The notes under the pieces are model-generated. The model worked only from the letters and a program-made list of their open reading frames with translations. It was not told where the DNA came from and ran no database searches. Positions 1 to 64,000 of a stretch of 64,000 nt of DNA are shown here, piece by piece. This DNA comes from Patescibacteria group bacterium (GTDB lineage: Bacteria; Patescibacteriota; Minisyncoccia; Phycocordibacterales; PALSA-1337): the NCBI GenBank assembly GCA_040388415.1, contig JAZKBV010000004.1, positions 24,069 through 88,068 on the forward strand, read 5' to 3'. The first letter of the stretch is position 1; every line of letters begins with the position of its first letter. The position numbers were made by a program, and so were the translations under genes.

Positions 1-2158
1 CACGGTTGTGGGTAATGAGAATGAGTTGTGAATGCTTTGAAAGATTTTCGATCATATCGCCATATTTTTTACTATTGGCTTCATCGAGGGCGGCGTCGGT
101 CTCGTCAAGGATGATGAATGGAGGCGGATTGACCTGAGAGACAGCAAAGAGAAGCGCAATTGAAGTGAGAGCACGCTCGCCACCTGAAAGCATCATAAGA
201 CCTTTCACTTTCTTGCGAGGCAAACTAACGTTAACCTCGAGACCCTCTGGTCCTTCTTGTGATTCTTCATTCTCCATTCTTCCTTCTTCGTTTTCTACTC
301 CTTCCAGCATGTCACCCAACTCTTCAGTATCTCCTTTCTTCTTTCTCCTTACTTCTCTAATTACAGTAAGCTCTGCATTGCCTCCACCAAACATCAAAGA
401 AAAATAATTCGTAAACTCCTTATTTATCTTTAATATTCCCTGCTTGAACTCTACATCGATGCGTACATCGAGCTCAGCTATGAGCTTATTTAGTTCATCC
501 TTTGCCTTCTCAAGATCAATAAGCTCACGCGCAAGGAAAGCATCGCGCTCCTCAGTTTCTTTATACTCTTTCATCACTTCAGCGCCACCACCCGCACCCA
601 TGTCTTCGAGACGAATTTTCAGTTTATCTATCTGATGCTTGCGTTCTTGTTGCTCTTGTCTTTGCTCTTGCGTTCTTCCTTCTCCTTTCTCTTTACTTCT
701 TTCTTCTTCGTACTGCGTCGCCTCACGCCCTACGATCATTCCCGCTTCACCCAACTCTCTTTTGAATTCCGCATCGGCAAAATCTATCTTCTGAACCTCC
801 GCGGTCAAACTACCGACAATATGTCGTACCTCGTTTTGACGTGCGATAATCCTAAACACTTCTTTTTCAGCGTCGCGGTTCGTATCCTTCTCATGCTCGA
901 TCTTTTGCTTGAGCGCGTTATATTCGCTGACGATCTTCTTTTCAAAATCCCCCAGCTCAGCTCTCTTATGCTCAAAGCTTTTCTTCTCATCAGATAAACG
1001 CGCAATCTCCTTTTCCATCTCAGCGATGAACTGCGAATCATTGGTTGAACGATGACCTTTGATGAAATGCCTGAAGGCGTCGATGACTTCTTTTACTGTT
1101 TGAAAGAGCTCAACCTTACTGATGACTTCTTCAACATCTTTCAAATAGACAGTTTTAAACTCCTCCTGCTTCATTCTCCCTTCTTCTTTCTCCTTCGCGC
1201 GTTTATTGGCATTTATTTCGCCCTCTATACGGCCGAGTTCACGTACAACAGTATCAGTCTCGGTGCGCGTTTCAGCTAGCTTCTTTTCAAGTGAAATCAA
1301 TTCGTCACTGGTCACATCTTTGTTCTTTGACGCTGTTAATATCTCTTTAGCTTTGTTGAGCGCATGCTCAAGGTCAGACAGCTCTTTCTTTGGTCCAGCA
1401 ATCTCTGCATGTAAACGACTCTTTTCAGTGGTGATATAGTGGTCTTCATGAGCAAAATATATTTTATATATTGAAATAAGCTCACGGCGCATCTCTTCGG
1501 CTTTTTCAACTTTCTCAACTTGTTTCTTCAAAAAGCGCAGGTGCGGAGCGATCTCACGACGGAGCGACTCTACTTGCTTCATATTCTCTTCGGTGCGCTC
1601 GAGCTTGCGGATGCTTTCCAATTTCTTCCATTGATATATCTTGAGACCGAGAGCATCCTCGATCATTTCACGACGTTCGCGAATGCTTGCCGAGAGGATG
1701 CGGTCAGCTTCGCCCTGAGAGATGATGTGGTGACCAGTTGCGCCAACATGAGCAGTCGCCAGAAGCTCGATGATATCTTTGAGACGCACTGCGGTGCCAT
1801 TCAATAAATATTCATTGCTATTATCACGATGGACGATGCGTTCAATAGTCACTTCATCAAAATCAATCGATGCAAACATGCGGCTCGAATTATCAAATGT
1901 TAGTTTTGCGCTGGCACGATTTGCTCTGCCCGCAGCAGAAGGACCATCGCCGCCACCATTCCAGATCATATCCTCACCACGTTTGCCGCGAAGAGATTTG
2001 ATAGATTGCTCGCCGAGCACAAAACGAAATGCTTCAGCAGTGTTCGACTTGCCTGAACCGTTCGGACCTACGATACCCGTGATCGATGAGGTGAAATTGA
2101 GCGTTGCCTTTTTGGCAAATGATTTAAAGCCAGATACTTCGAGGGATTTCAGATACAT
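1..2158 (-). CDS. smc: Chromosome segregation protein SMC (C-terminal end runs off the window start)
   Basis: The reverse complement from 2158 reads MYLKSLEVSGFKSFAKKATLNFTSSITGIVGPNGSGKSN (Walker A). Near position 1 it reads LSGGERALTSIALLFA...PFIILDETDAALDE (ABC signature and Walker B). It is not in the ORF track because no stop codon lies in the window. The + strand ORFs at 165-1807 are low-complexity antisense artefacts. Confidence 0.85.
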   Translation of the reverse strand, partial: MYLKSLEVSGFKSFAKKATLNFTSSITGIVGPNGSGKSNTAEAFRFVLGEQSIKSLRGKRGEDMIWNGGGDGPSAAGRANRASAKLTFDNSSRMFASIDFDEVTIERIVHRDNSNEYLLNGTAVRLKDIIELLATAHVGATGHHIISQGEADRILSASIRERREMIEDALGLKIYQWKKLESIRKLERTEENMKQVESLRREIAPHLRFLKKQVEKVEKAEEMRRELISIYKIYFAHEDHYITTEKSRLHAEIAGPKKELSDLEHALNKAKEILTASKNKDVTSDELISLEKKLAETRTETDTVVRELGRIEGEINANKRAKEKEEGRMKQEEFKTVYLKDVEEVISKVELFQTVKEVIDAFRHFIKGHRSTNDSQFIAEMEKEIARLSDEKKSFEHKRAELGDFEKKIVSEYNALKQKIEHEKDTNRDAEKEVFRIIARQNEVRHIVGSLTAEVQKIDFADAEFKRELGEAGMIVGREATQYEEERSKEKGEGRTQEQRQEQQERKHQIDKLKIRLEDMGAGGGAEVMKEYKETEERDAFLARELIDLEKAKDELNKLIAELDVRIDVEFKQGILKINKEFTNYFSLMFGGGNAELTVIREVRRKKKGDTEELGDMLEGVENEEGRMENEESQEGPEGLEVNVSLPRKKVKGLMMLSGGERALTSIALLFAVSQVNPPPFIILDETDAALDEANSKKYGDMIENLSKHSQLILITHNR

Positions 2159-2532
2159 GGCTGATATTTTAGCATAAAAAAGTCCCTCCAGACCAAAAAG
2201 GTGTGGAGGGGTGAAAGAGGCACTGCTATGCAGATAGTGGAAATGGAAAGCGTAGCTGACTCTCCTTGTGTTGATTGAATCCGAGACAAGTCCTTAGATG
2301 CTCAGAATACTTGATCACCGGAAAATCTGACTCACACAACCCGCACGTTTGCATGAGGGCTGTAATATCTACTGCCTTCATTTGAAGAATTGCACTCGAG
2401 GTGCTTGCGACCAGGACACTGTTCGACCCGCCACTTCTACCGAAGTCGAGATGTAATTCGTGCATATAAAAACTAAAGTTCAGAAAGTTCGTAACTATTG
2501 TAACATAGTCAGTGATTTAGCCGCTCTTCAAT

Positions 2533-3249
2533 TTACCACTTCTTAACCACCAAAGCGTTTTCAGCCGCCTTCTGCTCCGCCTCCTGCTTTGACTTCCCTT
2601 CCCCTGTCGCAACCTGCACATCACCGAGAAATACGGCAAGCGTGAACTTCTTGTCATGATCAGGACCTGTTTCTTTGAGCGTCTTATATGATGGCGTGAC
2701 TCCCGCTTTCTCCTGCGCTTTTTCTTGAAACATGCTCTTTGCATCGATCCATGTCTTGTTCTTCACAATCTCATCGATGTCGATAATATTTAAAATATGT
2801 TCAGAAATAAAATTCGCAGATGTATCATAGCCACTATCCATATAAATAGCACCGATAACTGCTTCAACTGCATTGGCGAGGATGATAGCGCGCGCACGAC
2901 CAGTATCCTTTGCCTCACCTTTTGAAAGGAGCATATAGTCGTTGAGACCAACCTTGTCACCAACTTTTGCCAAACTAACCGTATTCACAATGGCTGAACG
3001 AAAGGCGGTGAGCTCTCCCTCAGCCTTCTTTGGAAATTTACGGAAAAGAAAACTGGTCACTACAAGCTCGAGCACGGCATCACCGAGAAATTCGAGGCGC
3101 TCATTGTGCTCCAAACCAGATTCGCGATTCTCATTGATATATGAGCGATGCGTACATGCGGTGCGCAAAAGAGCCATGTCATTGAACGTGACATTGATAT
3201 GCTCTGCCAAATTTTCGAAGTTTATTTTCATAAAAATACGCCTGCCCAA
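2533..3249 (-). CDS. rnc: Ribonuclease III
   Basis: ERLEFLGDAVLELVV signature and a C-terminal dsRBD (GEGKSKQEAEQKAAENAL). The start may be the internal MKINFEN at 3231. Confidence 0.9.
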   Translation of the reverse strand: MGRRIFMKINFENLAEHINVTFNDMALLRTACTHRSYINENRESGLEHNERLEFLGDAVLELVVTSFLFRKFPKKAEGELTAFRSAIVNTVSLAKVGDKVGLNDYMLLSKGEAKDTGRARAIILANAVEAVIGAIYMDSGYDTSANFISEHILNIIDIDEIVKNKTWIDAKSMFQEKAQEKAGVTPSYKTLKETGPDHDKKFTLAVFLGDVQVATGEGKSKQEAEQKAAENALVVKKW

Positions 3250-5127: not shown

Positions 5128-6528
5128 ATGAGTACGAGCAACCCAAGCGACCCCAAGATGGGTCAGGTCACTAAACTGACCTTCAATCGCAAAAACGGTA
5201 ACTTCAGCTACAAGATCCCTGGCACCGGTGCCCGAAACGGCATCCAGTTCTATATCACGCCGACTGGCAACATCAAAGATGCCGTGCTCAGTATGGGCAT
5301 CTCTGGCGATCTTATCAAAATCGCCGCGAAGAACGGTAGCCTCACGCACAACTTGTCAGACTTCGGCCTTGTGTCGGAAAAGACTGTTGTGCGGGCGGGA
5401 GATTACTACCTTGTCCCGATCACCGTAGCGCACAGCACTTCTGGTCAGTCGCCGAGTGACCCGTTCTCGAAACCGGTCACACTCAGTCAAACGTTGGTGA
5501 ACGCTCTCGATGTCGTCTGGATCAAGAACAAGATCAACGTCCTGGAGTTGAATATCAATAAATTGAAAAAGGACGTTAACGGGATTCCGACTGATGCGCA
5601 CATCAAAGACCTCGCGAAAATCGAGGCGGCGACTGCATTCAGCGGCTATCAGGCTGAACTCAATGAACTTCGGGAGCTGCTCGACAAAAAGCAGCCCAAG
5701 GTCATCGTCAAGCGCACCGTCGCTTTGAACCTCGGAATGATCCTGATGAAAGCGCTCAGCAAGTGGACGGAGGCACGGAAGAAGAAAGCTCAAGCGAAAG
5801 CTGCGGCTACCCCTTCTTCTCCTGCCAAACCGGCTCTGAGCCCTCACCGCGCCCAGAAGCATGCGAACTATCGTCTGCGCTGGGCGTTGGCGGGAATCGC
5901 ATTCCTCATCCTCTGTCTCTCTGCGTTGGGGTATTACTTGAACCAAAAGTCCGGTCACCAAGGGGTCACTCCTTTGGCATCGGCTTTGGTCAACACCAAT
6001 GCGGGTGCAAGCAGTAACGCGCCGGCGAGCAGTGTGGCGACGATTGTCACCACGAACAGCCTCGGAACGAATGCGAACTCAGCTGTTTTGACTGCTGCTG
6101 CGACAAATAGCGCTTCAGTCATTCAGCAGATGGTCGTCGGACCTAATTGCAGTAACGTAAGCGGGCCAGTCAACATGAACTTTAGTCTGTTGTCTGTTCC
6201 CCCGCAACCAATCGTTGTGAAAACAATTGTGAAAACAACGGTCATCGTTACGAATCCGGTCGCTGTGAAAAAACCGTTCACGCCAGCCGTAGGGTATCAA
6301 CCGCCCGTGGCACAAAAAACCTTTGTGCCTGCGCAAGCGGTAACGCCCCCACAGGCCTCGGTGATCATCATCAACAATCAGACTGTCAACCGAGGAGGTT
6401 ATGGTCCTGGCACGGTATTGATAAGCGGCTGGCAGTATGACAATCAGCTCAGAGGCGGGAGACAAGTTTGCTACCGGGACAACTACCGGGCAATACGATC
6501 CTTCCCTCCGCCGTGTCGCCATCAATAA
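5128..6528 (+). CDS. Hypothetical protein with a central TM helix and a C-terminal low-complexity V/T/P-rich region, in a higher-GC segment
   Basis: A 466-aa ORF with an AAGGAGAG RBS 8 nt upstream. One TM segment reads WALAGIAFLILCLSALGYYL. Local GC is about 50-55% against about 43% in the core. An intrinsic terminator follows at 6551-6583. Confidence 0.6.
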   Translation: MSTSNPSDPKMGQVTKLTFNRKNGNFSYKIPGTGARNGIQFYITPTGNIKDAVLSMGISGDLIKIAAKNGSLTHNLSDFGLVSEKTVVRAGDYYLVPITVAHSTSGQSPSDPFSKPVTLSQTLVNALDVVWIKNKINVLELNINKLKKDVNGIPTDAHIKDLAKIEAATAFSGYQAELNELRELLDKKQPKVIVKRTVALNLGMILMKALSKWTEARKKKAQAKAAATPSSPAKPALSPHRAQKHANYRLRWALAGIAFLILCLSALGYYLNQKSGHQGVTPLASALVNTNAGASSNAPASSVATIVTTNSLGTNANSAVLTAAATNSASVIQQMVVGPNCSNVSGPVNMNFSLLSVPPQPIVVKTIVKTTVIVTNPVAVKKPFTPAVGYQPPVAQKTFVPAQAVTPPQASVIIINNQTVNRGGYGPGTVLISGWQYDNQLRGGRQVCYRDNYRAIRSFPPPCRHQ

Positions 6529-6550
6529 ATTCGACGCGGAACAAAATCAC

Positions 6551-6583
6551 AAAACCCACAGACTTAATCTGTGGGTTTTTTTT
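6551..6583 (+). terminator. Rho-independent terminator
   Basis: AACCCACAGA cttaa TCTGTGGGTT followed by TTTTTT. Confidence 0.8.
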
Positions 6584-6612
6584 CATATCTGTATTTTTCG
6601 TATGTGCCTACC

Positions 6613-6903
6613 CTATCTACCAGCGATCGTATTTGAAATGAAATAGACAATGCCCCATGCAGATACCATGATCATGATGCCAACGACGCCGGCCAACATA
6701 TGATTGCGTCCTTTCGTGCGCGCGTCGCCATCTTCACCGTTAATCATCATCTGTATGACGCCCCATACAAAAACTATGATGGCAACCGCGAACATGAGCA
6801 TGATCAGTGGATTGACTATGTGCGTGAATATAGGATCAACCACAGAGGCAAAAGCCGCTGTGGGATCCGCTGCTGCATGTACTGTATCGATGAGATAGCT
6901 CAT
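6613..6903 (-). CDS. Pilin-like small membrane protein (TrbC/VirB2-like topology), paralog 1, lacking an N-terminal signal peptide
   Basis: Two hydrophobic helices are separated by a charged loop (NGEDGDARTKGRN). The C-terminal motif SAWGIVYFISNTIAG is shared with four upstream paralogs. Confidence 0.4.
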   Translation of the reverse strand: MSYLIDTVHAAADPTAAFASVVDPIFTHIVNPLIMLMFAVAIIVFVWGVIQMMINGEDGDARTKGRNHMLAGVVGIMIMVSAWGIVYFISNTIAGR

Positions 6904-7828: not shown

Positions 7829-8539
7829 TTACTGGTTATTAATAGCATTCTGCGCATTTTGAATGATCGCTGGATTGACTGTGCCAGTCGCCTGGAGCGT
7901 ATTGATGACGACGCTGATCAATATGCGCGCACCAAGGATGACACCGATGCCAACAACAACCCAGAGGAGCTGGTTGCTGCGGGTCTTAATCGCTTCCGGA
8001 TTTCCCTGCGCCAATACGAACTGGAGACCGACCCACATGAGCATGAGCACACCAAAAATCACTGCGATGTAGCTGACGATCTTCATAAAGGTCAAAATAA
8101 GATCGCTCACCGAATTGACTCCCTTAAGCGGATTGGAGAGTGTCGTCACTGGTGCAGGCGCAGGAGCTTGATCAGAAGCACTCGGTGTTTTTGCTGTAGA
8201 CGTGCGAGCTGCTGGCTGACCGGCAGTCGTTGGAGAACTAACTGTCGTTGGAGATGTAGCGTTATCAACTGCATTTACATTTGATCCTGAATACGGCACT
8301 GGAATAGTCGAGGGAGATGAATCATATGTTGTATCATACGAATTATAATCATAGCTCGAATCAGTGGATGGGTCTGTTGCTGATGGGTCTGTCGAATCTG
8401 CACCGGCACAGCTTTCTGGCGTACCTCCTTCGTTCAAACAATAATCATAATCGCTATTTTGTGCATAGCTGACGAATGGGCTCGCGATAATAACCGCTAA
8501 AGTAAGATATGTGACGTAGATTTTTAGAGTTGTTTTCAT
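7829..8539 (-). CDS. Pilin-like secreted/membrane protein with a long S/T/P/D-rich insert, paralog 4
   Basis: Signal peptide MKTTLKIYVTYLTLAVIIASPFVSYAQ. An approximately 110-aa low-complexity S/T/P/D-rich region. The C-terminal two-TM core ends in ARILISVVINTLQATG. Confidence 0.5.
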   Translation of the reverse strand: MKTTLKIYVTYLTLAVIIASPFVSYAQNSDYDYCLNEGGTPESCAGADSTDPSATDPSTDSSYDYNSYDTTYDSSPSTIPVPYSGSNVNAVDNATSPTTVSSPTTAGQPAARTSTAKTPSASDQAPAPAPVTTLSNPLKGVNSVSDLILTFMKIVSYIAVIFGVLMLMWVGLQFVLAQGNPEAIKTRSNQLLWVVVGIGVILGARILISVVINTLQATGTVNPAIIQNAQNAINNQ

Positions 8540-8573
8540 GAAAAAAAGATCAAATTAATAATTGAGTCAGTAA

Positions 8574-9095
8574 TTATGGACTACCGAGCAACTTGGTAAA
8601 CGCACCATTTCCCGTCAGCCAATTGAGGATCTGATAAACGATGAACCATGCTGACAGCATGATGATCAAACCAATGAATATCTTTGGAAAAATATCCTTG
8701 GCATGACTACGGTCACTATCCTTACCTGTCATAAGTAAATATCCTGCATAGGTAAAGAGAACAATGGCGGCGAGGACACCGAGCACCATGGCAATGTTGA
8801 TGAGATGCTGGACCTGTATCATCATGCCATTAAAATTGCAGGGCACATATGGCTGCGCATGTCCGAATTTTTTCATAAATGCGGTCTCACCTGAAGGCGA
8901 TAATATCTCTCTCGTCTTCGTATCGAGATTAGCTGGCAGCTCTGGGCCATCGCACGCAACGATCCTGAATGACGACTGAGTAGGATCCTCACTTGCGCTA
9001 GGAGACGTTAATGTTTGAGTATTCTGTGCAAAGACTGAAGACGTAGCAAGGAGGCTAACGCTGAGAAGTATGAGAGAAAGGGTAATTTTTTTCAT
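8574..9095 (-). CDS. Pilin-like secreted/membrane protein, paralog 5
   Basis: Signal peptide MKKITLSLILLSVSLLATSSVFAQ. Two TM helices with loop MTGKDSDRSHAKD. C-terminal motif LSAWFIVYQILNWLTGNG. Confidence 0.5.
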   Translation of the reverse strand: MKKITLSLILLSVSLLATSSVFAQNTQTLTSPSASEDPTQSSFRIVACDGPELPANLDTKTREILSPSGETAFMKKFGHAQPYVPCNFNGMMIQVQHLINIAMVLGVLAAIVLFTYAGYLLMTGKDSDRSHAKDIFPKIFIGLIIMLSAWFIVYQILNWLTGNGAFTKLLGSP

Positions 9096-56128: not shown

Positions 56129-56201
56129 TCCTCGGTAGCTCAGCTGGTAGAGCAGCTCGCTGTTAACGAGTTGGTCGTAGGTTCGAATCCTACCCGAGGA
56201 G
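56129..56201 (+). tRNA. tRNA-Asn (anticodon GTT); its 3' end is overlapped by the recombinase gene (integration site)
   Basis: TCCTCGGTAGCTCAGCTGGTAGAGCAGCTCGCTGTTAACGAGTTGGTCGTAGGTTCGAATCCTACCCGAGGAG. Confidence 0.85.
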
Positions 56202-57743
56202 CATTGTAGGACGAGAGGGCACAAAAGTGCTCTCTTTTCTTTTTATGGAGCCATTATTTTCTGGTTCGAAAGTGTTATTAAGTAAAGGCACCCATTTAGC
56301 AAGAAATTCAAAGGCTAAAGTGTATTGTGGGGCTATAACATTAGCTTTCATTGAGATGTTCGAAAATATCTGACTTAAAAGCAATCTCTTTTGCTCAACA
56401 GTCGTCTTTGGACCCAAATATATATCTTTTGCCTTCATAGCTAGCTCATGAATTGAATACCCTGCTTCGTAATATCTCTGACGGTCCTCAGAAAGTTTTT
56501 TTAATGAATCCAACAGGACTTCATTTTCTCTTTTTGTATCTTCAAAGACCTTTGTGTACATCTCTCCAGTAATGGCACCATCCAGTTTATCCATATAAAC
56601 TTTCTCCATTCTGTTGTCATTACGCTTAATGAGCCTAGATATCTCTTCTTTCCTGAGACCATGTTCTTGAATCTCATCTGCATGACTTTCTTTTAATGCT
56701 TTTTCTAACCACGCAATAACCCTAGGATTTTTAGGGGCTATCTTGTCGAAATAAGCAAAAAGCTCTTTTTCAACCTCTTCCTGTCGAATCCATTTAGCCT
56801 TTGGACAGCCTTTATAATAATTACAGTGCCCATACCAATGCCCTTTTTGAGTCTCCCATGTAATCACACCTTTACATACCTCACAGTTAAGCTTCGCTTT
56901 GAATACTGGAGTGTGTTTTCTATATGAAGGAGACTGATTTTTACGGTTTAATTTATCTTGAACAAGATTAAATAATTCTTGTGAAATCAATGGCTCATGC
57001 TTTCCTTGATAAATCTCATTGTTCCACCTTATCTTTCCGTAGTAGAAAGGGTCACTCAAAAAATCATGCATTCTCGTCTTACCTACTCTGGTTCCAAAAT
57101 TATTTCTAAATCCCTCCTTATACAAAACATTACTCAGTTCTTGGACCGAATAGTTGCCAGTTGAATACAGGTCAAACATCCGCTTTATATACTGAGCCTT
57201 TTCAGGATTAATTACATGTATCTTATGACCCTTTTCTCCTTGTGATTTATAACCTAATGGTGCCCTAACAGGTGCCCAGCCTTGAGAAAGCTTCTCTTTC
57301 TGCCCTTTGCGGACCTCTTCAGACAAATTTGATATATACTTCTTAGCCAAAACTATTTCAATGTCCCATCTAAACCTTTCATCAGATTTTGCATTTCTGT
57401 GTATCACTAAATTTTGCTTCACAAAGTGAATCTTGCGATTTACATCAGCATCAATCCAATCGTTCGCCACGACTGCTTCCTTGAGGTTTCTAGTTAGTCG
57501 GTCAACCTTTTCGCACAACAGATTATTAACCCCATTCTTAGTCATGTAATCAATCATGTCTGAAAACACCTTTCTTTGCTTTGCACCACTTGCAGATTCA
57601 GCAACAGAAAAAGTTTTTACTACCTTCATATCCTTTCTTTGCGCATGTTCCTCTAGCAACTTCTCTTGTGCTGGCAAAGAATAGCCAGTTTCCTCCTGTT
57701 CTTTTGAACTCACTCGGGCATATATAACAGCTTTTTCTTTCAT
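56190..57743 (-). CDS. Large serine recombinase (serine integrase)
   Basis: N-terminal resolvase catalytic domain (AVIYARVSSKEQ, catalytic Ser). Recombinase domain. Zinc-ribbon and coiled-coil region (CEVCKGVITWETQKGHWYGHCNYYKGCP). 517 aa. Confidence 0.85.
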   Translation of the reverse strand: MKEKAVIYARVSSKEQEETGYSLPAQEKLLEEHAQRKDMKVVKTFSVAESASGAKQRKVFSDMIDYMTKNGVNNLLCEKVDRLTRNLKEAVVANDWIDADVNRKIHFVKQNLVIHRNAKSDERFRWDIEIVLAKKYISNLSEEVRKGQKEKLSQGWAPVRAPLGYKSQGEKGHKIHVINPEKAQYIKRMFDLYSTGNYSVQELSNVLYKEGFRNNFGTRVGKTRMHDFLSDPFYYGKIRWNNEIYQGKHEPLISQELFNLVQDKLNRKNQSPSYRKHTPVFKAKLNCEVCKGVITWETQKGHWYGHCNYYKGCPKAKWIRQEEVEKELFAYFDKIAPKNPRVIAWLEKALKESHADEIQEHGLRKEEISRLIKRNDNRMEKVYMDKLDGAITGEMYTKVFEDTKRENEVLLDSLKKLSEDRQRYYEAGYSIHELAMKAKDIYLGPKTTVEQKRLLLSQIFSNISMKANVIAPQYTLAFEFLAKWVPLLNNTFEPENNGSIKRKESTFVPSRPTMLLG

Positions 57744-58178: not shown

Positions 58179-58364
58179 TCAATTCTGTTGATGATTAATC
58201 AATGCAAGTAAATCAAAGTAGCCCGTAAGGTCACGAGCCAATTCAGATACTTTCTCTGGGACAAGCTGAATGCCATATTCCTCGAAAATTATCTGACCCA
58301 ATTCTTTGATTGTTTCTGCTTTTAAATTCATTATGATTTTCGTTTCTAACACTTTATATTTCAC
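58179..58364 (-). CDS. Hypothetical small protein (island cargo)
   Basis: 61-aa ORF with low GC. No domain recognised. Confidence 0.3.
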   Translation of the reverse strand: MKYKVLETKIIMNLKAETIKELGQIIFEEYGIQLVPEKVSELARDLTGYFDLLALINHQQN

Positions 58365-58425
58365 TAAACGTAATCTATATCAACTTTGCTATTTACTAAC
58401 CCTATAAGTGAAATTCAGTCCATTT

Positions 58426-58647
58426 TTATGCGTCCTCAGGGGTATTTGCGAGCTTCTCAAGACTATTAATTAAGCTGAACTTGTCTTTGTTATTAAATTC
58501 ATCTTTAGGAACGAGTAACTCGAATGCCTTATTAAGAGCTGAACGCTTAAAACTTTGACCTCGAACAGCTCTCATTAAAGCTGTGTAAGCAGATAGTCCG
58601 GAATCGGACTGCATAGTATTGACAAATCGTTTTTTGATACTTCTCAT
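58426..58647 (-). CDS. Hypothetical small protein (island cargo)
   Basis: 73-aa ORF. No domain recognised. Confidence 0.3.
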   Translation of the reverse strand: MRSIKKRFVNTMQSDSGLSAYTALMRAVRGQSFKRSALNKAFELLVPKDEFNNKDKFSLINSLEKLANTPEDA

Positions 58648-58811
58648 GTAATTTAATTTTGGTAAATAAAAAAAGCCCGTTTGGGGGCTGTGCTCCCATT
58701 ATAACATTTTTCAAACATTCATTATAGACCTCCTAGTAAATTTGTGTTATAAAAATGTGGCTCAAATAAGCCACTAAACTTATCCACATTAAAAATAGTT
58801 TGGAGGACCCA

Positions 58812-59489
58812 TTAATTAACTGCTTCAAGTACATATTTGTCGTTAATCGCATATGTGCCCTGAGAAATCTTAATTATTAACGGTTCAGTCATATTACAAC
58901 GCTTTTTTAATTGGGAATTAATTCTTTTACATTGCAGGTAGATATTACTTCTGTCCTCATATTTAGTAATTGCCTGAATTTCACTACCTAATAGTATTTC
59001 TTTACTTAAAAAAGCAGAAACAAGTAGAAAACTTTTTTTACTTTTACCTGAGGATTTAAGTCTATAGTATTCTTCTCGTTTACCCTGAACATATAATCCA
59101 TAATTCGATTCCAAACATATTTTTACTCTGTCTCCACCGTTTGTATCTATAAAATTTATCAGGTATGCCTTCAGTTTTTCCATATCAGCATCAAAATACA
59201 AATACAACACTCTGTTTTGAGTATCTTGAGAAGCTATTTGTTGTTTTTCCCCTCTTTTATAACTACTAACCTGTGTATTTGTTATCAAATTCTCCTTATT
59301 TAACATATCGATAAAATCGGTCCAACCAATAAAATTCTGAATAACGATTGATTCCGAAGGTGAAAATCCGCTTTTAAAATCCAATTTACTAATCTCTTTA
59401 AGTAAGAGATTGGCAATGTTTATAGCACTTAAACCGTATGTATCCCTGTGACTGGTCATGCAACCTAGATTAGCACAATGGAAAACCAT
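58812..59489 (-). CDS. Hypothetical protein (island cargo)
   Basis: 225-aa ORF. No domain recognised. Confidence 0.4.
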   Translation of the reverse strand: MVFHCANLGCMTSHRDTYGLSAINIANLLLKEISKLDFKSGFSPSESIVIQNFIGWTDFIDMLNKENLITNTQVSSYKRGEKQQIASQDTQNRVLYLYFDADMEKLKAYLINFIDTNGGDRVKICLESNYGLYVQGKREEYYRLKSSGKSKKSFLLVSAFLSKEILLGSEIQAITKYEDRSNIYLQCKRINSQLKKRCNMTEPLIIKISQGTYAINDKYVLEAVN

Positions 59490-59495
59490 TAAAAA

Positions 59496-59891
59496 CTAGT
59501 TACTCAGACAAGCTGAGTATGCCTGTTGATACTGAGCTTGATAGTAAACATTTTTTGCATTATCTGTATTCTTATTTAATTCTGACATGAGCCCATTAGC
59601 GCAAGCTAAACTACCAGCCTCGCACACTATCTTTGCTTGTTCAACAATCTTCTGTACCTCAGCATTTGCAATCGTTGGAGTGGCTAACTGTAATTGCTGT
59701 TTAGCGAGAATATCTGAAGATATTTTACACTTCTCAATCTTTATCTGCGGGCCATTGTTTACTTTAGGGACAGTGGTTATTGGCATTGGTACTGCCTGTT
59801 TGATATTTACAATGATGAGCGTTGAAACTAACAATAAAAGCACTGCGACAATACTCAACTTAAACCAATTTTCTTTTAAAAAACTATTCAT
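59496..59891 (-). CDS. Hypothetical membrane-anchored protein (island cargo)
   Basis: N-terminal TM helix (LSIVAVLLLLVSTLIIV). Cys-containing extracytoplasmic domain. Start chosen at MNSFLKE to abut the upstream gene. It could instead be 59933. Confidence 0.4.
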   Translation of the reverse strand: MNSFLKENWFKLSIVAVLLLLVSTLIIVNIKQAVPMPITTVPKVNNGPQIKIEKCKISSDILAKQQLQLATPTIANAEVQKIVEQAKIVCEAGSLACANGLMSELNKNTDNAKNVYYQAQYQQAYSACLSN

Positions 59892-59892
59892 A

Positions 59893-60651
59893 TCATTTAA
59901 ATCCACAAAGATGGGACCGGAGTTTCGTTTCAAGTTCTTCCTTATTTAACTGCACCGAATCAATGGTTTTTTGCAACAATGCTTTTTGTGCCTGAAGTGA
60001 CTTAAATTCTTCTTGTTTGTTAGTAGTGGTTGATTGAGGTGAATCTTGTTGTATAAGAACATATATTTCTTTTTGCAACGACTGAAGCCCTTGTTGCTTC
60101 ACCGTTAGTATCGATTTTATGTCATCAAACTGACTTGCATATGTTAAACAAAGATTGGTGTCTGCAACTGGCACTACTATTGCAAAAGGTTCTCCACCAC
60201 ACTTTGAGGCGTAATTCCCATATTTTTCTTTTAATGAGAGCAGGATAGCCTTATACAAAGGTTGTGCCTCATACGAGAGTTGTTTAGGTATGTAACCTGT
60301 CTTTAATAAATAAAGTGTACGGGCATAAAATTTATTGACGGTAGAAACATCACCCCAATTCTCGGTCCCACTTGTTAGTGGCACATCCTTTTCTAACTCA
60401 GAACACATCACTTGTAACTTTAATGAGTTATTGTTAATTTCAACCTCATTTATTCGATTACTTAATGTAACCTGTTCAGTCTCAATTGAAGATACCTTAC
60501 CAAAAATAGTGTTTATCTGAGAAACTATCGAAGACATCGCTTCAGTAGGCGTTTTGCCACCGAGAACAGAAATTGCAAACGTACCTGCAAATGTAATTAC
60601 AGGGAAAGCAATAATGACTCCGAGTACTATAAAAATTATGTGTTTTCTCAT
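59893..60651 (-). CDS. Hypothetical secreted/membrane-anchored protein with a coiled-coil C-terminus (island cargo)
   Basis: Start taken at MRKHIIFIVLGVIIAFPVITFAG (60651). The upstream region carries GTTACTGG repeats and a CACGTG hairpin. Confidence 0.45.
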   Translation of the reverse strand: MRKHIIFIVLGVIIAFPVITFAGTFAISVLGGKTPTEAMSSIVSQINTIFGKVSSIETEQVTLSNRINEVEINNNSLKLQVMCSELEKDVPLTSGTENWGDVSTVNKFYARTLYLLKTGYIPKQLSYEAQPLYKAILLSLKEKYGNYASKCGGEPFAIVVPVADTNLCLTYASQFDDIKSILTVKQQGLQSLQKEIYVLIQQDSPQSTTTNKQEEFKSLQAQKALLQKTIDSVQLNKEELETKLRSHLCGFK

Positions 60652-60948
60652 TTTGTTACTGGTTTTAGGTAGCATAAAGCCCACCACGTGGGCGACGGCT
60701 TGCGCCATCCATACCAGTTTCCCGATATGACCAGTAACGATAGCCCCACATGATGGGTTTTCTACTCGTTACTGGTTTTTTCACCATGTCAGTATTTCTA
60801 CTGATTTAGGCTACTCGTATAAAATATTGAATTGTGTTCCCATTAAACCATAAAATACTCTCGTTTAAAAGTGACATTGGGGCATTTGTTGATAAGTTTA
60901 ATATCAATCTAGTGTATAATATTGATATCAGTTTTTGATATTTGAACA

Positions 60949-61548
60949 ATGCTCTCAATCAATAAAAATCAGCACACTAGCGATTTAAAGATTAGACATA
61001 ATCTAATTAAATACATTGGGAAACAGTACAATAATCACCCAGCAAAAATAATCGAGGAATTTTCTGTTTGTGACGGGGCTGCACGAGTAGATTTAGCGGC
61101 AGTGAATGGAATAATGCACGGATTTGAAATTAAAAGTGATATTGATTCATTAAATAGACTTCCGCACCAAATTGAACTCTACGGCTCAGTATTTGATAGG
61201 GTTACCTTGGTTGTGGGGGCAACTCATTTGTATGAGGCTTTTAATATGATTCCAGAATGGTGGGGTGTCTTAGTGGCTAGAATAAATAAAAATGGGACAG
61301 TTTCTTTTAACGAAATCAGAAGCCCAAAAAAGAACAGGAACGTAAAAATTCATTCTGTTGTAAAACTCTTGTGGAAGGAGGAGGCAATCAGTGTTCTTGA
61401 AGGAATAGGTTTTGCTCGTGGGTATAAGTCGAAAAATAGAGAACAAATCTGCAGAAAAATTACCGAGGAACTTGATTTAAAAACAATTTCTACGAAAGTT
61501 AGGGAATCAATTTTATTTAACCGACAAGGTTGGAAAGTTGGTGTATAA
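60949..61548 (+). CDS. Candidate PD-(D/E)xK-fold nuclease-like protein (possibly sce7726-like family)
   Basis: VCDGAARVDLAAVNGIMHGFEIKSDID fits a D...D/E-x-K catalytic pattern. An extended -10 promoter (TGTATAAT, 60913-60920) is flanked by the inverted repeat TAATATCAAT/ATTGATATCA (60899-60930). The 3' end overlaps the convergent 387-aa gene by 32 nt. Confidence 0.5.
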   Translation: MLSINKNQHTSDLKIRHNLIKYIGKQYNNHPAKIIEEFSVCDGAARVDLAAVNGIMHGFEIKSDIDSLNRLPHQIELYGSVFDRVTLVVGATHLYEAFNMIPEWWGVLVARINKNGTVSFNEIRSPKKNRNVKIHSVVKLLWKEEAISVLEGIGFARGYKSKNREQICRKITEELDLKTISTKVRESILFNRQGWKVGV

Positions 61549-62680
61549 CCACTGCAGTGTGGTGACTGATTCCATATGCAATCCAGTCCCATGTACGCCC
61601 CGTGCCCTTTACACTATTATCTTTTGCATAAACTTTAAAGTGTTCAGCTTTTTCACATATCTTTTTATCTCCCCAACTAAATTTTTCTCCCATACCGTAA
61701 GTCGCACTTTTAAATTCTGGCTGAAGAACAAGCAAAGAGGCGTTCGTCAGATACAGATGCAACGCTCTTTTTTTACCTTTCATAATCATCCATTGTGGTC
61801 CGAGAGTGTATTTGAGTGTCGACGTTGATTCAATAAATTGCAACGAATCATTGTACATGGGATGTCGAATACTGTAATCACTGTAGGTTGGGATTCGATT
61901 AACACCGTTTTTTAATACATTACTTTCCCAGCTGGTCCAATCTGTTCTTGGTAGATATGTAGATTCATCGATTGGACACTCTGACATATCGACTGGAAAT
62001 GCCCCACTCGCAAAGATAAATTCCTTAAATTGCTTCAAACCAGTTATTTTCTGTGCTTTATCAAATAATAGCCCGTACGTTTCAGGTGAGTGGTCTAAGT
62101 ACTTTAAATCAATCAATAAATGGGTGTCCTCCTTTGACACCTTAAGTACATTTACGAGTAAATCAGATATTTTTTTGTCTAAAATATCTATATCCCTCAA
62201 ATTTGATGGGGTTACCCTTAAACACACCTCATTGATTAATTTTTTAGAAATTAATTGACCAATGTTATTTACGATTGAATGTTCATCTGCAACATTAAAT
62301 ACCGGCACTATTTCAATCCCTTTTATCCTTCCTTCTTCAACTAGCTTGTTCAATGTTTCTATTTTTAACTCACTAGTTTTATGTCTATCATGAAGCAACG
62401 TAACATCAACATAAATTTTATCTACACCCCAAAATTCCTTAATTTCCTCTGGTATTTCACCTAATCGACTTGAAAGCATCTTTTCAACCATTTCTGCATG
62501 AATTTCATCATCAGTTTTTTTTATCGTCCTTTCTTTATCTTTATGTGTATTAACGCTTGGAAGCACTAGTTCAATCAGAGGTACGACATGTTTCTTGTCT
62601 ATAGAAGAGATGTTGCTGAGAGCTGCCATTTCTCCAGCTTTCCATTTTAATATGGGTACGTATTTAATGTTTTTGGTCAT
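61517..62680 (-). CDS. Hypothetical 387-aa protein, co-transcribed with the HTH-ImmA gene (possibly sce7725/beta-protein-like; candidate effector)
   Basis: The ORF starts 4 nt after the upstream gene's stop. No motif recognised by eye. Confidence 0.5.
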   Translation of the reverse strand: MTKNIKYVPILKWKAGEMAALSNISSIDKKHVVPLIELVLPSVNTHKDKERTIKKTDDEIHAEMVEKMLSSRLGEIPEEIKEFWGVDKIYVDVTLLHDRHKTSELKIETLNKLVEEGRIKGIEIVPVFNVADEHSIVNNIGQLISKKLINEVCLRVTPSNLRDIDILDKKISDLLVNVLKVSKEDTHLLIDLKYLDHSPETYGLLFDKAQKITGLKQFKEFIFASGAFPVDMSECPIDESTYLPRTDWTSWESNVLKNGVNRIPTYSDYSIRHPMYNDSLQFIESTSTLKYTLGPQWMIMKGKKRALHLYLTNASLLVLQPEFKSATYGMGEKFSWGDKKICEKAEHFKVYAKDNSVKGTGRTWDWIAYGISHHTAVVIHQLSNLVG

Positions 62681-62684
62681 AAAT

Positions 62685-63887
62685 TTATTTAATCCACATC
62701 ACTTCAGGAAAATAATCCCGTACCGCTGATTCAGTAATTATTTTTGTTAATTTGTTCCAACTATTCATTTCGTATCTAATTTTTCCGGCAACAATAGCCA
62801 TATGTACACCAATTTCACTAGCCAAAGCACTAGCGGCTAGTTTGGAAGGTATAAGTTTTGCCGCACTGACTTCCCACTTATCTGAAGGAACCAGAGCTTC
62901 ACTAGCCAATGTATCTGCCTCTTTTTCAATTTTACTAATTTCTACACCAGATACATTTTCTAATTCATCGTAGAAAATATGATTTTCATGTTCACTGTGA
63001 AGTGCAATGTGTGCAAGTTCATGCATTAGCGTAAACCAAAAACTATCAAGACGGTCAAATCTTAAGGTTAAAGCAATAATCGGGTTGTTTTTATCTACGA
63101 AAATTGCCGCTCCATCAAGACGTGTACCTTTAAAATGAGGCTCAATAACTAATATAATCCCATTTTCCAAAAGAAAATTTTGAATCTTTTTTGGGGCATT
63201 TTCTAAAATACTCATTTGCGCCACTTTACGCATAAATTGCAAATTAACAGTGCCCTTTTTATATAAGCAATTAATTTTAGCCGCTTCCGCACGCTTAAGC
63301 ACACATCCAAACCAAGCCGCTAAAGCATTCTTATCCGTTAATGGTGATGTTCTGTAGTTAGACTGACGAAGTAATCCTGCAAATTGAACTTCTTGATTTC
63401 TGAACTGGAACAGTTTACTTAAATCCACACCATTGATACGTGTAGTAATTTCTGATACCAACTTTGTGCTCCAATTTAAAATATTTTTAGTATCACGACT
63501 TTCTGTTTCTTGAATCAATACCTTAAAAGGAATATCAAGCCCGCTTTCAAGTGCTCGAATCATTTTTATGGTTAAAGGTCTCTTACCCGATAAAATCTCT
63601 GACGCTTTACTGCGACTACCGATATAAGGTTCGAGGTCAACAGGCTTCAAATTTTGTTGTTCCATTCTGAAACGTATAGCCTCAATAGGACTTGGAAGAC
63701 TGGAAGAAAAGTTGTTTCTTTCGTAATCCTCAATAAGAGTAGCGAGCAGTTGAAGTTGGTCCGCCTCTTTAGAGCCAGATTTGGGGTTAACAATCATCAG
63801 CTCTTCAAGTGCTGACAGAGCTTCTTCGTGGTCTTTTTGAGTTTTTATTACTTTAATATTTATCATGGTTTTTATTTGATATTCCAC
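62685..63887 (-). CDS. XRE-family HTH domain fused to an ImmA/IrrE-family zinc metallopeptidase
   Basis: HTH region: IEAIRFRMEQQNLKPVDLEPYIGSRSKASEILSGKRPLTIKMIRAL. C-terminal HEXXH: FTLMHELAHIALHSEH. Confidence 0.75.
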   Translation of the reverse strand: MEYQIKTMINIKVIKTQKDHEEALSALEELMIVNPKSGSKEADQLQLLATLIEDYERNNFSSSLPSPIEAIRFRMEQQNLKPVDLEPYIGSRSKASEILSGKRPLTIKMIRALESGLDIPFKVLIQETESRDTKNILNWSTKLVSEITTRINGVDLSKLFQFRNQEVQFAGLLRQSNYRTSPLTDKNALAAWFGCVLKRAEAAKINCLYKKGTVNLQFMRKVAQMSILENAPKKIQNFLLENGIILVIEPHFKGTRLDGAAIFVDKNNPIIALTLRFDRLDSFWFTLMHELAHIALHSEHENHIFYDELENVSGVEISKIEKEADTLASEALVPSDKWEVSAAKLIPSKLAASALASEIGVHMAIVAGKIRYEMNSWNKLTKIITESAVRDYFPEVMWIK

Positions 63888-64000
63888 TTTTCGTACTCCT
63901 CATGTGTTCCTACCGCTTTAATATTTACTATCTGATGTTCATAGCTAATTTGTACCCATATCCTATACTTATTGCCACATATATTGAAAACCGTATTTAA

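Follow-up and report, generated by a model that had tools for sequence, protein, structure and literature searches.

A PD-λ-2-type locus extended by a P4-type cII nuclease gene: a probable four-gene anti-phage module on an integrated island in Patescibacteria

Analysis of a 64,000-nt stretch of DNA from a Patescibacteria group bacterium (assembly GCA_040388415.1, contig JAZKBV010000004.1, positions 24,069 to 88,068; hereafter the window) allowed us to delineate a unit of four genes close to its right-hand edge: a HigB-type toxin gene, a gene that fuses a HigA-like helix-turn-helix (HTH) domain to an M78 (ImmA/IrrE) peptidase, a β protein gene and, converging on the latter, a cII nuclease gene (HigB → HigA-HTH/M78 peptidase → β →← cII). 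Profile matches support an identification of the locus as one of the PD-λ-2 type, named after a defence system of Escherichia coli, extended by a nuclease of the type that phage P4 encodes as cII. The features of the unit are as follows.

60949 to 61548, plus strand: cII/sce7726-family gene, 199 aa
61517 to 62680, minus strand: β protein gene (PD-λ-2 C component, phage P4 β family), 387 aa
61517 to 61548: antisense overlap of the β and cII 3′ ends, 32 nt, from the coordinates
62685 to 63866, minus strand: HigA-HTH/M78 peptidase gene (PD-λ-2 B), 393 aa; a GTG start at 63887 is possible (400 aa)
63872 to 64000, minus strand: 3′ part of the HigB-type toxin gene (PD-λ-2 A), 42 codons plus stop, cut by the window edge
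366 to 653 of contig L001 (window-equivalent 63872 to 64159 on the minus strand): full HigB gene, 95 aa

An earlier note on this DNA, made from its letters alone, had proposed a module of three genes. Its open reading frames (ORFs) at 60949-61548, 61517-62680 and 62685-63887 are all present, and the coordinates bear out both the 4-nt gap between the peptidase stop and the β start codon (62681-62684) and the 32-nt convergent overlap; what required amendment is the number of genes, as the unit has a fourth, HigB-like gene at its head. On the minus strand beyond 63887, translation gives the C-terminus of this further protein, ...GNKYRIWVQISYEHQIVNIKAVGTHEEYEKWNIK*, ending at 63872. The gene is cut by the window edge and is completed on L001 (Logan SRR26324621), an identical public contig of 8,352 nt that covers window-equivalent positions 56173-64524, and the unit is therefore one of four genes with the first partly outside the window. 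Gene calls on L001 (HigB 366-653, peptidase 659-1840, β 1845-3008) are adjacent and co-directional, in the order A-B-C, which 75 relatives share. For the peptidase gene, ATG 63866 (393 aa) is a likelier start than GTG 63887, because the PADLOC profile alignment sets in only with residue 8 and an independent call of the gene on L001 likewise gives 393 aa. In the NCBI record of the identical proteins, from a 132-kb contig of a Patescibacteria metagenome-assembled genome (MAG), the 199-aa protein is named 'sce7726 family protein' and β is 'hypothetical'.

Both HigB and the N-terminus of the peptidase fusion are homologous to partners of the same HigBA crystal complexes. The 95-aa protein matches the E. 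coli HigB structures 5ycl_B and 5ifg_A at 7e-7, Pfam HigB_toxin (PF09907) at 4e-26 (91.5 bits, cut-off 27) and, over its full length, PADLOC PD-Lambda-2_A at 1.8e-34; its residues R66, H86, Y89 and W92 are invariant among homologues. Residues 7-110 of the fusion match the E. coli HigA structures 5ycl_A and 5ifg_B at 6.5e-6, and Pfam HTH_3 matches weakly. The 393-aa protein as a whole is matched by PADLOC PD-Lambda-2_B at 4.3e-126, over profile positions 1-398 of 402, and also by PADLOC capP at 1e-11. Its peptidase part scores above the Pfam Peptidase_M78 cut-off (7.7e-10, 39.1 bits against 22) and carries the HExxH motif of ImmA/IrrE proteins that had been recognised earlier, in the form HELAH at residues 282-286, with H282, E283, H286 and additionally E314 invariant in 78 homologues. 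The HTH-ImmA/IrrE fusion is thus as first described, but the role of regulator or gate assigned to it falls short, since its E. coli homologue is itself toxic and not merely a gate (PMC9519451).

The 387-aa protein is a β-protein, as had been suspected, by its match to Pfam Beta_protein (PF14350; 1.8e-43, 149.8 bits, cut-off 27), and PADLOC PD-Lambda-2_C matches it at 9e-36; the P4-type PADLOC 'beta' profile gives a weak match of 1.5e-4 at the N-terminus. An equation of this protein with sce7725 had also been suggested and was rejected in favour of the Beta_protein family: no NCBIfam family matches the window protein at E <= 0.1, and none matches the β proteins of P4, Rac-SA53, E. coli C or Gordonia phage DumpsterDude at E <= 0.01, so that the sce7725 model recognises neither β of the window nor these four. 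The protein is predicted to form a (β/α)8 TIM barrel in which the invariant residues D92, D191, R245 and D268 lie at strand C-termini. In the literature searched we found no mention of PF14350, and sce7725 and sce7726 are mentioned in passing only.

For the 199-aa protein, the suspected sce7726 identity is confirmed by NCBIfam NF033832 (sce7726_fam) with 169.1 bits and E 9.4e-50, against a curated cut-off of 70 bits. PADLOC 'cll' matches at 3.3e-29, PF26915 (Phage_P4_cII) matches as well, and P4 cII itself is 29% identical (tblastn, E 2e-10). A PD-(D/E)xK nuclease fold with an αβββαβ core is predicted, followed by a C-terminal helical domain, and the restriction-endonuclease-like D...D/E-x-K pattern noticed earlier corresponds to E37...D48...E60-x-K62, invariant in 86 homologues. 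The earlier note's suggestion of a defence or abortive-infection-type module is supported by the matches to all three of PD-Lambda-2_A, B and C. Judged by the residues that are kept, all four proteins are apparently catalytically competent.

When genomes were scanned with the 393-aa protein, at least 549 relatives emerged. The best 80, at 44-72% identity, were examined; among their sources are Patescibacteria, Planctomycetota, Acidobacteriota, Bacteroidota, Gammaproteobacteria and Chloroflexota. The arrangement HigB>B>β><cII is kept in 74 of the 75 loci with enough downstream sequence. Failure of the three genes first described to be conserved together in other genomes had been named beforehand as an argument against the module; given this count, the argument does not apply. 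Spacing in the relatives is tight, with median gaps of ~8 nt from HigB to B and ~1 nt from B to β, and the genes that flank the four-gene module vary. The 3′ overlap of β and cII is likewise present in 74 of 75 related loci, where it ranges from 26 to 101 nt (mode 50) and is nearly always of length 3n+2, and therefore the relative frame of the two genes is fixed and the overlap inherited. Two loci depart from the common form: in L081, the sole exception to the gene order, β is cut down to 68 aa (6523-6729) and cII was not detected, and in L076 an insertion of ~520 nt (8249-8763) separates the peptidase gene from β.

Each half of the unit is also found by itself. In IMG/VR viral contigs, 74 of 80 cII loci consist of the convergent β/cII pair only, without HigB, peptidase or gop (the toxin gene of the P4 system); none of the 80 viral β/cII loci contains gop, and no gene recurs upstream of β in the viral pairs. 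Overlap of the two genes is again the rule (71 of 73 viral pairs), with a length of 3n+2 in 67 of the 71. Among prophages, Escherichia phage Rac-SA53 has an annotated pair of this kind ('sce7726 family' plus 'beta family'). Its genes converge and overlap antisense at their 3′ ends by 41 nt, against 32 nt here, with the relative frame unchanged; the difference is that neither HigB nor a peptidase gene lies upstream. At the other end, distant plasmid relatives of the peptidase fusion (36-40% identity) comprise HigB and peptidase alone, often amid other defence genes. Since β/cII occurs alone in viruses, gop-β-cII in P4 and HigB with peptidase alone on plasmids, the locus is, by these gene arrangements, a stable fusion of two modules, each of which has an existence of its own elsewhere.

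Among the separate modules, the HigB and HTH-peptidase pairs of plasmids L168 (1189-3458) and L171 (5512-5907) adjoin ubiquitin-like defence genes (ThiF adenylyltransferase, multiubiquitin, DUF6527), and other stand-alone pairs adjoin restriction genes and AbiE; the pair itself is therefore found among defence genes. In Gordonia phage DumpsterDude (MT024859.1; L085, 3959-4636) a cII homologue of 36% identity has gone unannotated, its place in the record being taken by a short ORF on the other strand. The homologue converges on gene 33 (380 aa), presumably of β type, although tblastn with the window β gave no match there.

The comparison of upstream regions revealed a palindrome, TGTTCCCAT-n-ATGGGAACA, which precedes HigB by 15-40 nt and recurs in distant relatives from different phyla. 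A TTCCCA/TGGGAA half-site is present upstream of HigB in 62 of 72 loci, palindromic in 37 of them and 11-fold enriched; per 150 nt it occurs 1.29 times there, as against 0.12 times within coding DNA and 0.06 times in the region before cII. At the locus under study, a promoter-like TTGCAT-16-TATTAT is combined with the palindrome TGTTCCC-catat-GGGAACA (L001:303-348, window-equivalent 64177-64222), which starts at the last base of the -10 element and ends 17 nt before the ATG. The same palindrome has 15-nt arms in L053. This placement suggests a candidate operator with the geometry of HigA-type autorepression, and the operon is probably autorepressed.

The region upstream of cII holds a different repeat.

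60901 to 60928, plus strand: perfect 8+8 inverted repeat ATATCAAT-12-ATTGATAT around TATAAT at 60915-60920, 21 nt upstream of the cII ATG

An extended -10 promoter embedded in an inverted-repeat operator had been proposed here. TATAAT does lie in a perfect 8+8 repeat (1 match against 0.01 expected), with a TTGATA -35 candidate 20 nt away. The TG directly abuts the hexamer, however, and the site is therefore not TGnTATAAT and not a canonical extended -10; the promoter scan did not report the site at 60915-60920, and comparable repeats upstream of cII are not enriched in 72 relatives (best-arm mean 6.4 nt, against 5.9 nt in shuffled sequence). The repeat was accordingly rejected as an operator of the family and kept as a locus-specific candidate promoter/operator. 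A half-site TGTTCCCAT at 60835-60843, inside a promoter-like TTGAAT-18-TAAAAT (60827-60856) upstream of cII, is probably there by chance. Co-regulation of cII through a HigB-type operator was rejected, as the motif is found upstream of cII in 4 of 72 loci, below the coding-region rate.

Towards the left, the module is preceded by a series of features that place it on a mobile element.

56129 to 56202, plus strand: tRNA-Asn (ARAGORN, Rfam tRNA)
56190 to 57743, minus strand: large serine recombinase, 517 aa (Pfam Resolvase and Recombinase), with a 13-nt overlap with tRNA-Asn
58179 to 60708, minus strand: five island ORFs (61, 73, 225, 145 and 271 aa) between the recombinase and the module

Immediately ahead of tRNA-Asn and the recombinase come housekeeping genes (PriA-like, Fmt, HPF), and from 56 kb to the window end the GC content falls from ~45% to ~35%. 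The module is thus cargo of an integrated low-GC island, with tRNA-Asn and the recombinase as its proximal boundary. The distal boundary was not found: in the 524 nt beyond the window, the 3′ end of tRNA-Asn does not recur as an att direct repeat of at least 10 nt. Contig L001 breaks inside tRNA-Asn. The five island ORFs have no Pfam or PADLOC match, and they have no homologue in the 80 related loci save for a borderline match of orf61 (E 4e-4). The PADLOC gop profile, which matches P4 gop itself at 4.8e-70, matches none of the island ORFs.

The closest characterised counterpart is PD-λ-2, which a functional selection yielded from E. coli ECOR42 (Vassallo et al. 2022, Nat Microbiol, PMC9519451). 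The validated clone is 3.4 kb long and has three ORFs only (PMC9519451, Table S2). Of their products, A is HigB-like, B combines a HigA-HTH with a peptidase, and C is described as 'related to a P4 phage antitoxin'. On its own B is toxic, an effect that is neutralised by A; C is dispensable for neutralisation and required for defence against λvir, and the phenotype is abortive infection (PMC9519451). The window locus has the same three co-directional genes in the same order and with operon-like spacing, and the A, B and C profiles of PADLOC all match. Its clade differs by the fourth, convergent cII gene that overlaps the β 3′ end and is lacking in the E. coli clone, and the host here is a Patescibacteria MAG. 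At the locus of E. coli C (NZ_CP029371.1), HigB, ImmA/IrrE and β are followed by a convergent SIR2 gene. A cII remnant was sought in the E. coli PD-λ-2 locus and rejected: tblastn detects none, and only 80 nt lie between β and SIR2. This SIR2-family gene (L086:1952-3469), which converges on β in the place of cII, matches PADLOC PDC-S25, a separate candidate system, at 1e-159, and a tyrosine integrase adjoins it.

The other system with which the locus shares genes is gop-β-cII of P4, reportedly treated by Ghisotti in 1990 and by Rousset et al. in 2022. In the satellite phage, gop-β-cII protects against λ and P1, and β functionally interacts with the upstream toxin gop, to which it is described as the antitoxin (PMC9122126); the phage gene orf184 triggers the system (bioRxiv 10.1101/2023.04.06.535777). 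Shared with the window are β, the convergent cII/sce7726 gene and, probably, the character of an anti-phage, toxin-antitoxin-like system. The P4 order is gop>β><cII, whereas here gop is lacking and the HigA-peptidase fusion stands upstream of β, with HigB before it; in P4, moreover, β and cII do not overlap and are separated by a terminator, and cII is longer (264 aa).

Two further comparisons concern the upstream half. As in E. coli HigBA (5ifg, 5ycl), the toxin gene is the first of the operon. Our A protein is homologous to HigB, and B is homologous to HigA over its first ~110 residues; the palindrome at the promoter may be a comparable operator. The HigA homologue differs by an extension of ~280 residues with the M78 zinc peptidase, and toxicity is assigned the other way round in PD-λ-2 of E. 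coli. ImmR/ImmA, DdrO/IrrE and CapH/CapP likewise associate an M78 HExxH peptidase with an HTH repressor domain, the difference being that both are fused in one polypeptide here. We found no joint mention of PD-λ-2 with gop or cII in the literature searched, where neither the conserved fourth gene nor a link of PD-λ-2 to gop-β-cII seems to have been reported before.

We consider it likely that the locus is a four-gene anti-phage module of abortive-infection type, carried on the integrated island, which fuses the two separately occurring modules and works along the following lines. The toxicity of B, its neutralisation by A, the requirement for C and the abortive-infection phenotype would be carried over by analogy with the E. 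coli homologues, and we infer an order of events, a trigger, substrates and a role for cII. At rest, the HigB-like protein would be bound, as HigB is in HigBA complexes, to the HigA-like domain at the N-terminus of the fusion, and the A-B complex would sit on TGTTCCCAT-n-ATGGGAACA, overlapping the -10 element of the operon, with transcription kept low and both partners inactive. A phage cue might then activate or free the zinc peptidase, as in sensors of the ImmA/IrrE/CapP type, or break the complex in another way. This would derepress the operon and release toxic activities, namely mRNA cleavage by HigB and proteolysis, and the β/cII pair could act as executor, with cII cutting DNA and β serving as its enzymatic partner or regulator.

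Several observations weigh against this account. In E. coli it is the HigA-like fusion that is toxic and the HigB-like protein that neutralises, the reverse of canonical HigBA, and release of HigB as the killing step is therefore uncertain. The E. coli proteins are 24-37% identical to those of the window, so that the transfer of function is an extrapolation. The validated E. coli clone has no cII, so that in that host the three-gene core can do without it. Structure comparison, including Foldseek, found no specific structural relative of β. Finally, cII has a promoter region of its own without the HigB-type operator; co-regulation of cII with the operon is therefore unsupported.

The last of these points would be expected if two independent neighbours were at hand, a HigB/HigA-peptidase toxin-antitoxin pair and a separate β/cII system without functional coupling, and the occurrence of HigB with peptidase alone on plasmids and of β/cII alone in most viral loci (74 of 80) and Rac-SA53 points the same way. 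We nevertheless regard such independence as unlikely, given that B and β share one operon with a median gap of ~1 nt across the 75 loci, from many phyla and with differing flanks, that the β gene is required for defence by E. coli PD-λ-2 (PMC9519451), and that P4 β functionally interacts with a toxin encoded upstream of it (PMC9122126). Coupling of another sort is assumed if β and cII form a minimal restriction-modification-like pair, in which β modifies DNA or the nucleotide pool, cII cuts unmodified DNA, and HigB/HigA-peptidase is only a regulator or addiction module. The matches of β to TGT and DpdA, however, are no better than those to dozens of unrelated TIM barrels and are unranked by Foldseek; E. 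coli PD-λ-2, moreover, defends without cII and is reported to act by abortive infection and not by restriction (PMC9519451), and P4 β is described as an antitoxin (PMC9122126). We hold this pairing to be very unlikely.

There is also the possibility that the module does not serve phage defence at all. An HTH domain together with ImmA/IrrE is the architecture of immunity switches such as ICEBs1 ImmR/ImmA, and the island that carries the module does encode a large serine recombinase, at tRNA-Asn; the fusion might then be the immunity switch of the island and control excision or transfer through the recombinase. This is scarcely probable, as a serine recombinase is found within 7 kb of the module in just 15 of the 80 loci, in variable positions, and none of the window's other island genes is conserved along with it in the 80 loci; linkage of the module to the recombinase or to other island ORFs was rejected on these grounds. 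The constant partners are HigB, β and cII, and the closest characterised homologue is a defence system.

In addition to the four-gene defence module as such, a wider relationship is quite conceivable, and we put it forward tentatively: PD-λ-2 and gop-β-cII may form one superfamily built on a universal two-gene β/cII core with an ancestral, frame-locked antisense overlap. The core would be autonomous in most phages, with gop or HigB plus HigA-peptidase grafted on, E. coli PD-λ-2 would be a derived form that has lost cII, and the chemistry of β, not HigB, would be the key to both systems.

Both PD-λ-2 and gop-β-cII have been validated as anti-phage systems, and defence-finding tools list them as unrelated. 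Considering the conservation in 74 of 75 loci, the overlapping pairs of phages, the catalytic residues that are kept and the candidate operator at the HigB promoter, β/cII suggests itself as the core to study, and the comparative data name residues for mutation and a DNA site at which binding could be assayed. Outside E. coli, four genes are apparently the common form, and therefore the PADLOC and DefenseFinder definitions may need an optional fourth component. In addition, the locus shows a mobile island bearing a recognisable defence system in Patescibacteria, among which few defences have been characterised.

An RNA element lies beside the module in the window. LOOT is a small RNA motif (Rfam RF03000), and a full-length copy at 60694-60812 on the minus strand scores 87.5 bits against a gathering score of 46.4; it sits between orf271 and cII, 136 nt from the cII start, and is the sole copy in the 64-kb window. 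Further copies are found ~0.15-1.2 kb from the module in 3 of 23 other Patescibacteria loci (L007:6435-6550, minus; L050:5210-5323, minus; L059:305-424, plus), on varying sides and strands. With a copy near the module in 4 of 24 Patescibacteria loci, the window included, and a variable side and strand, LOOT was rejected as a component of the system. Other RNA genes near the module in relatives include tRNA genes in L005, L007, L022, L036 and L041 and tmRNA at L005:249-630 and L025:10835-11219, all within a few kb, a proximity that fits carriage on islands that integrate at such genes. A group I intron is present at L021:5434-5711.

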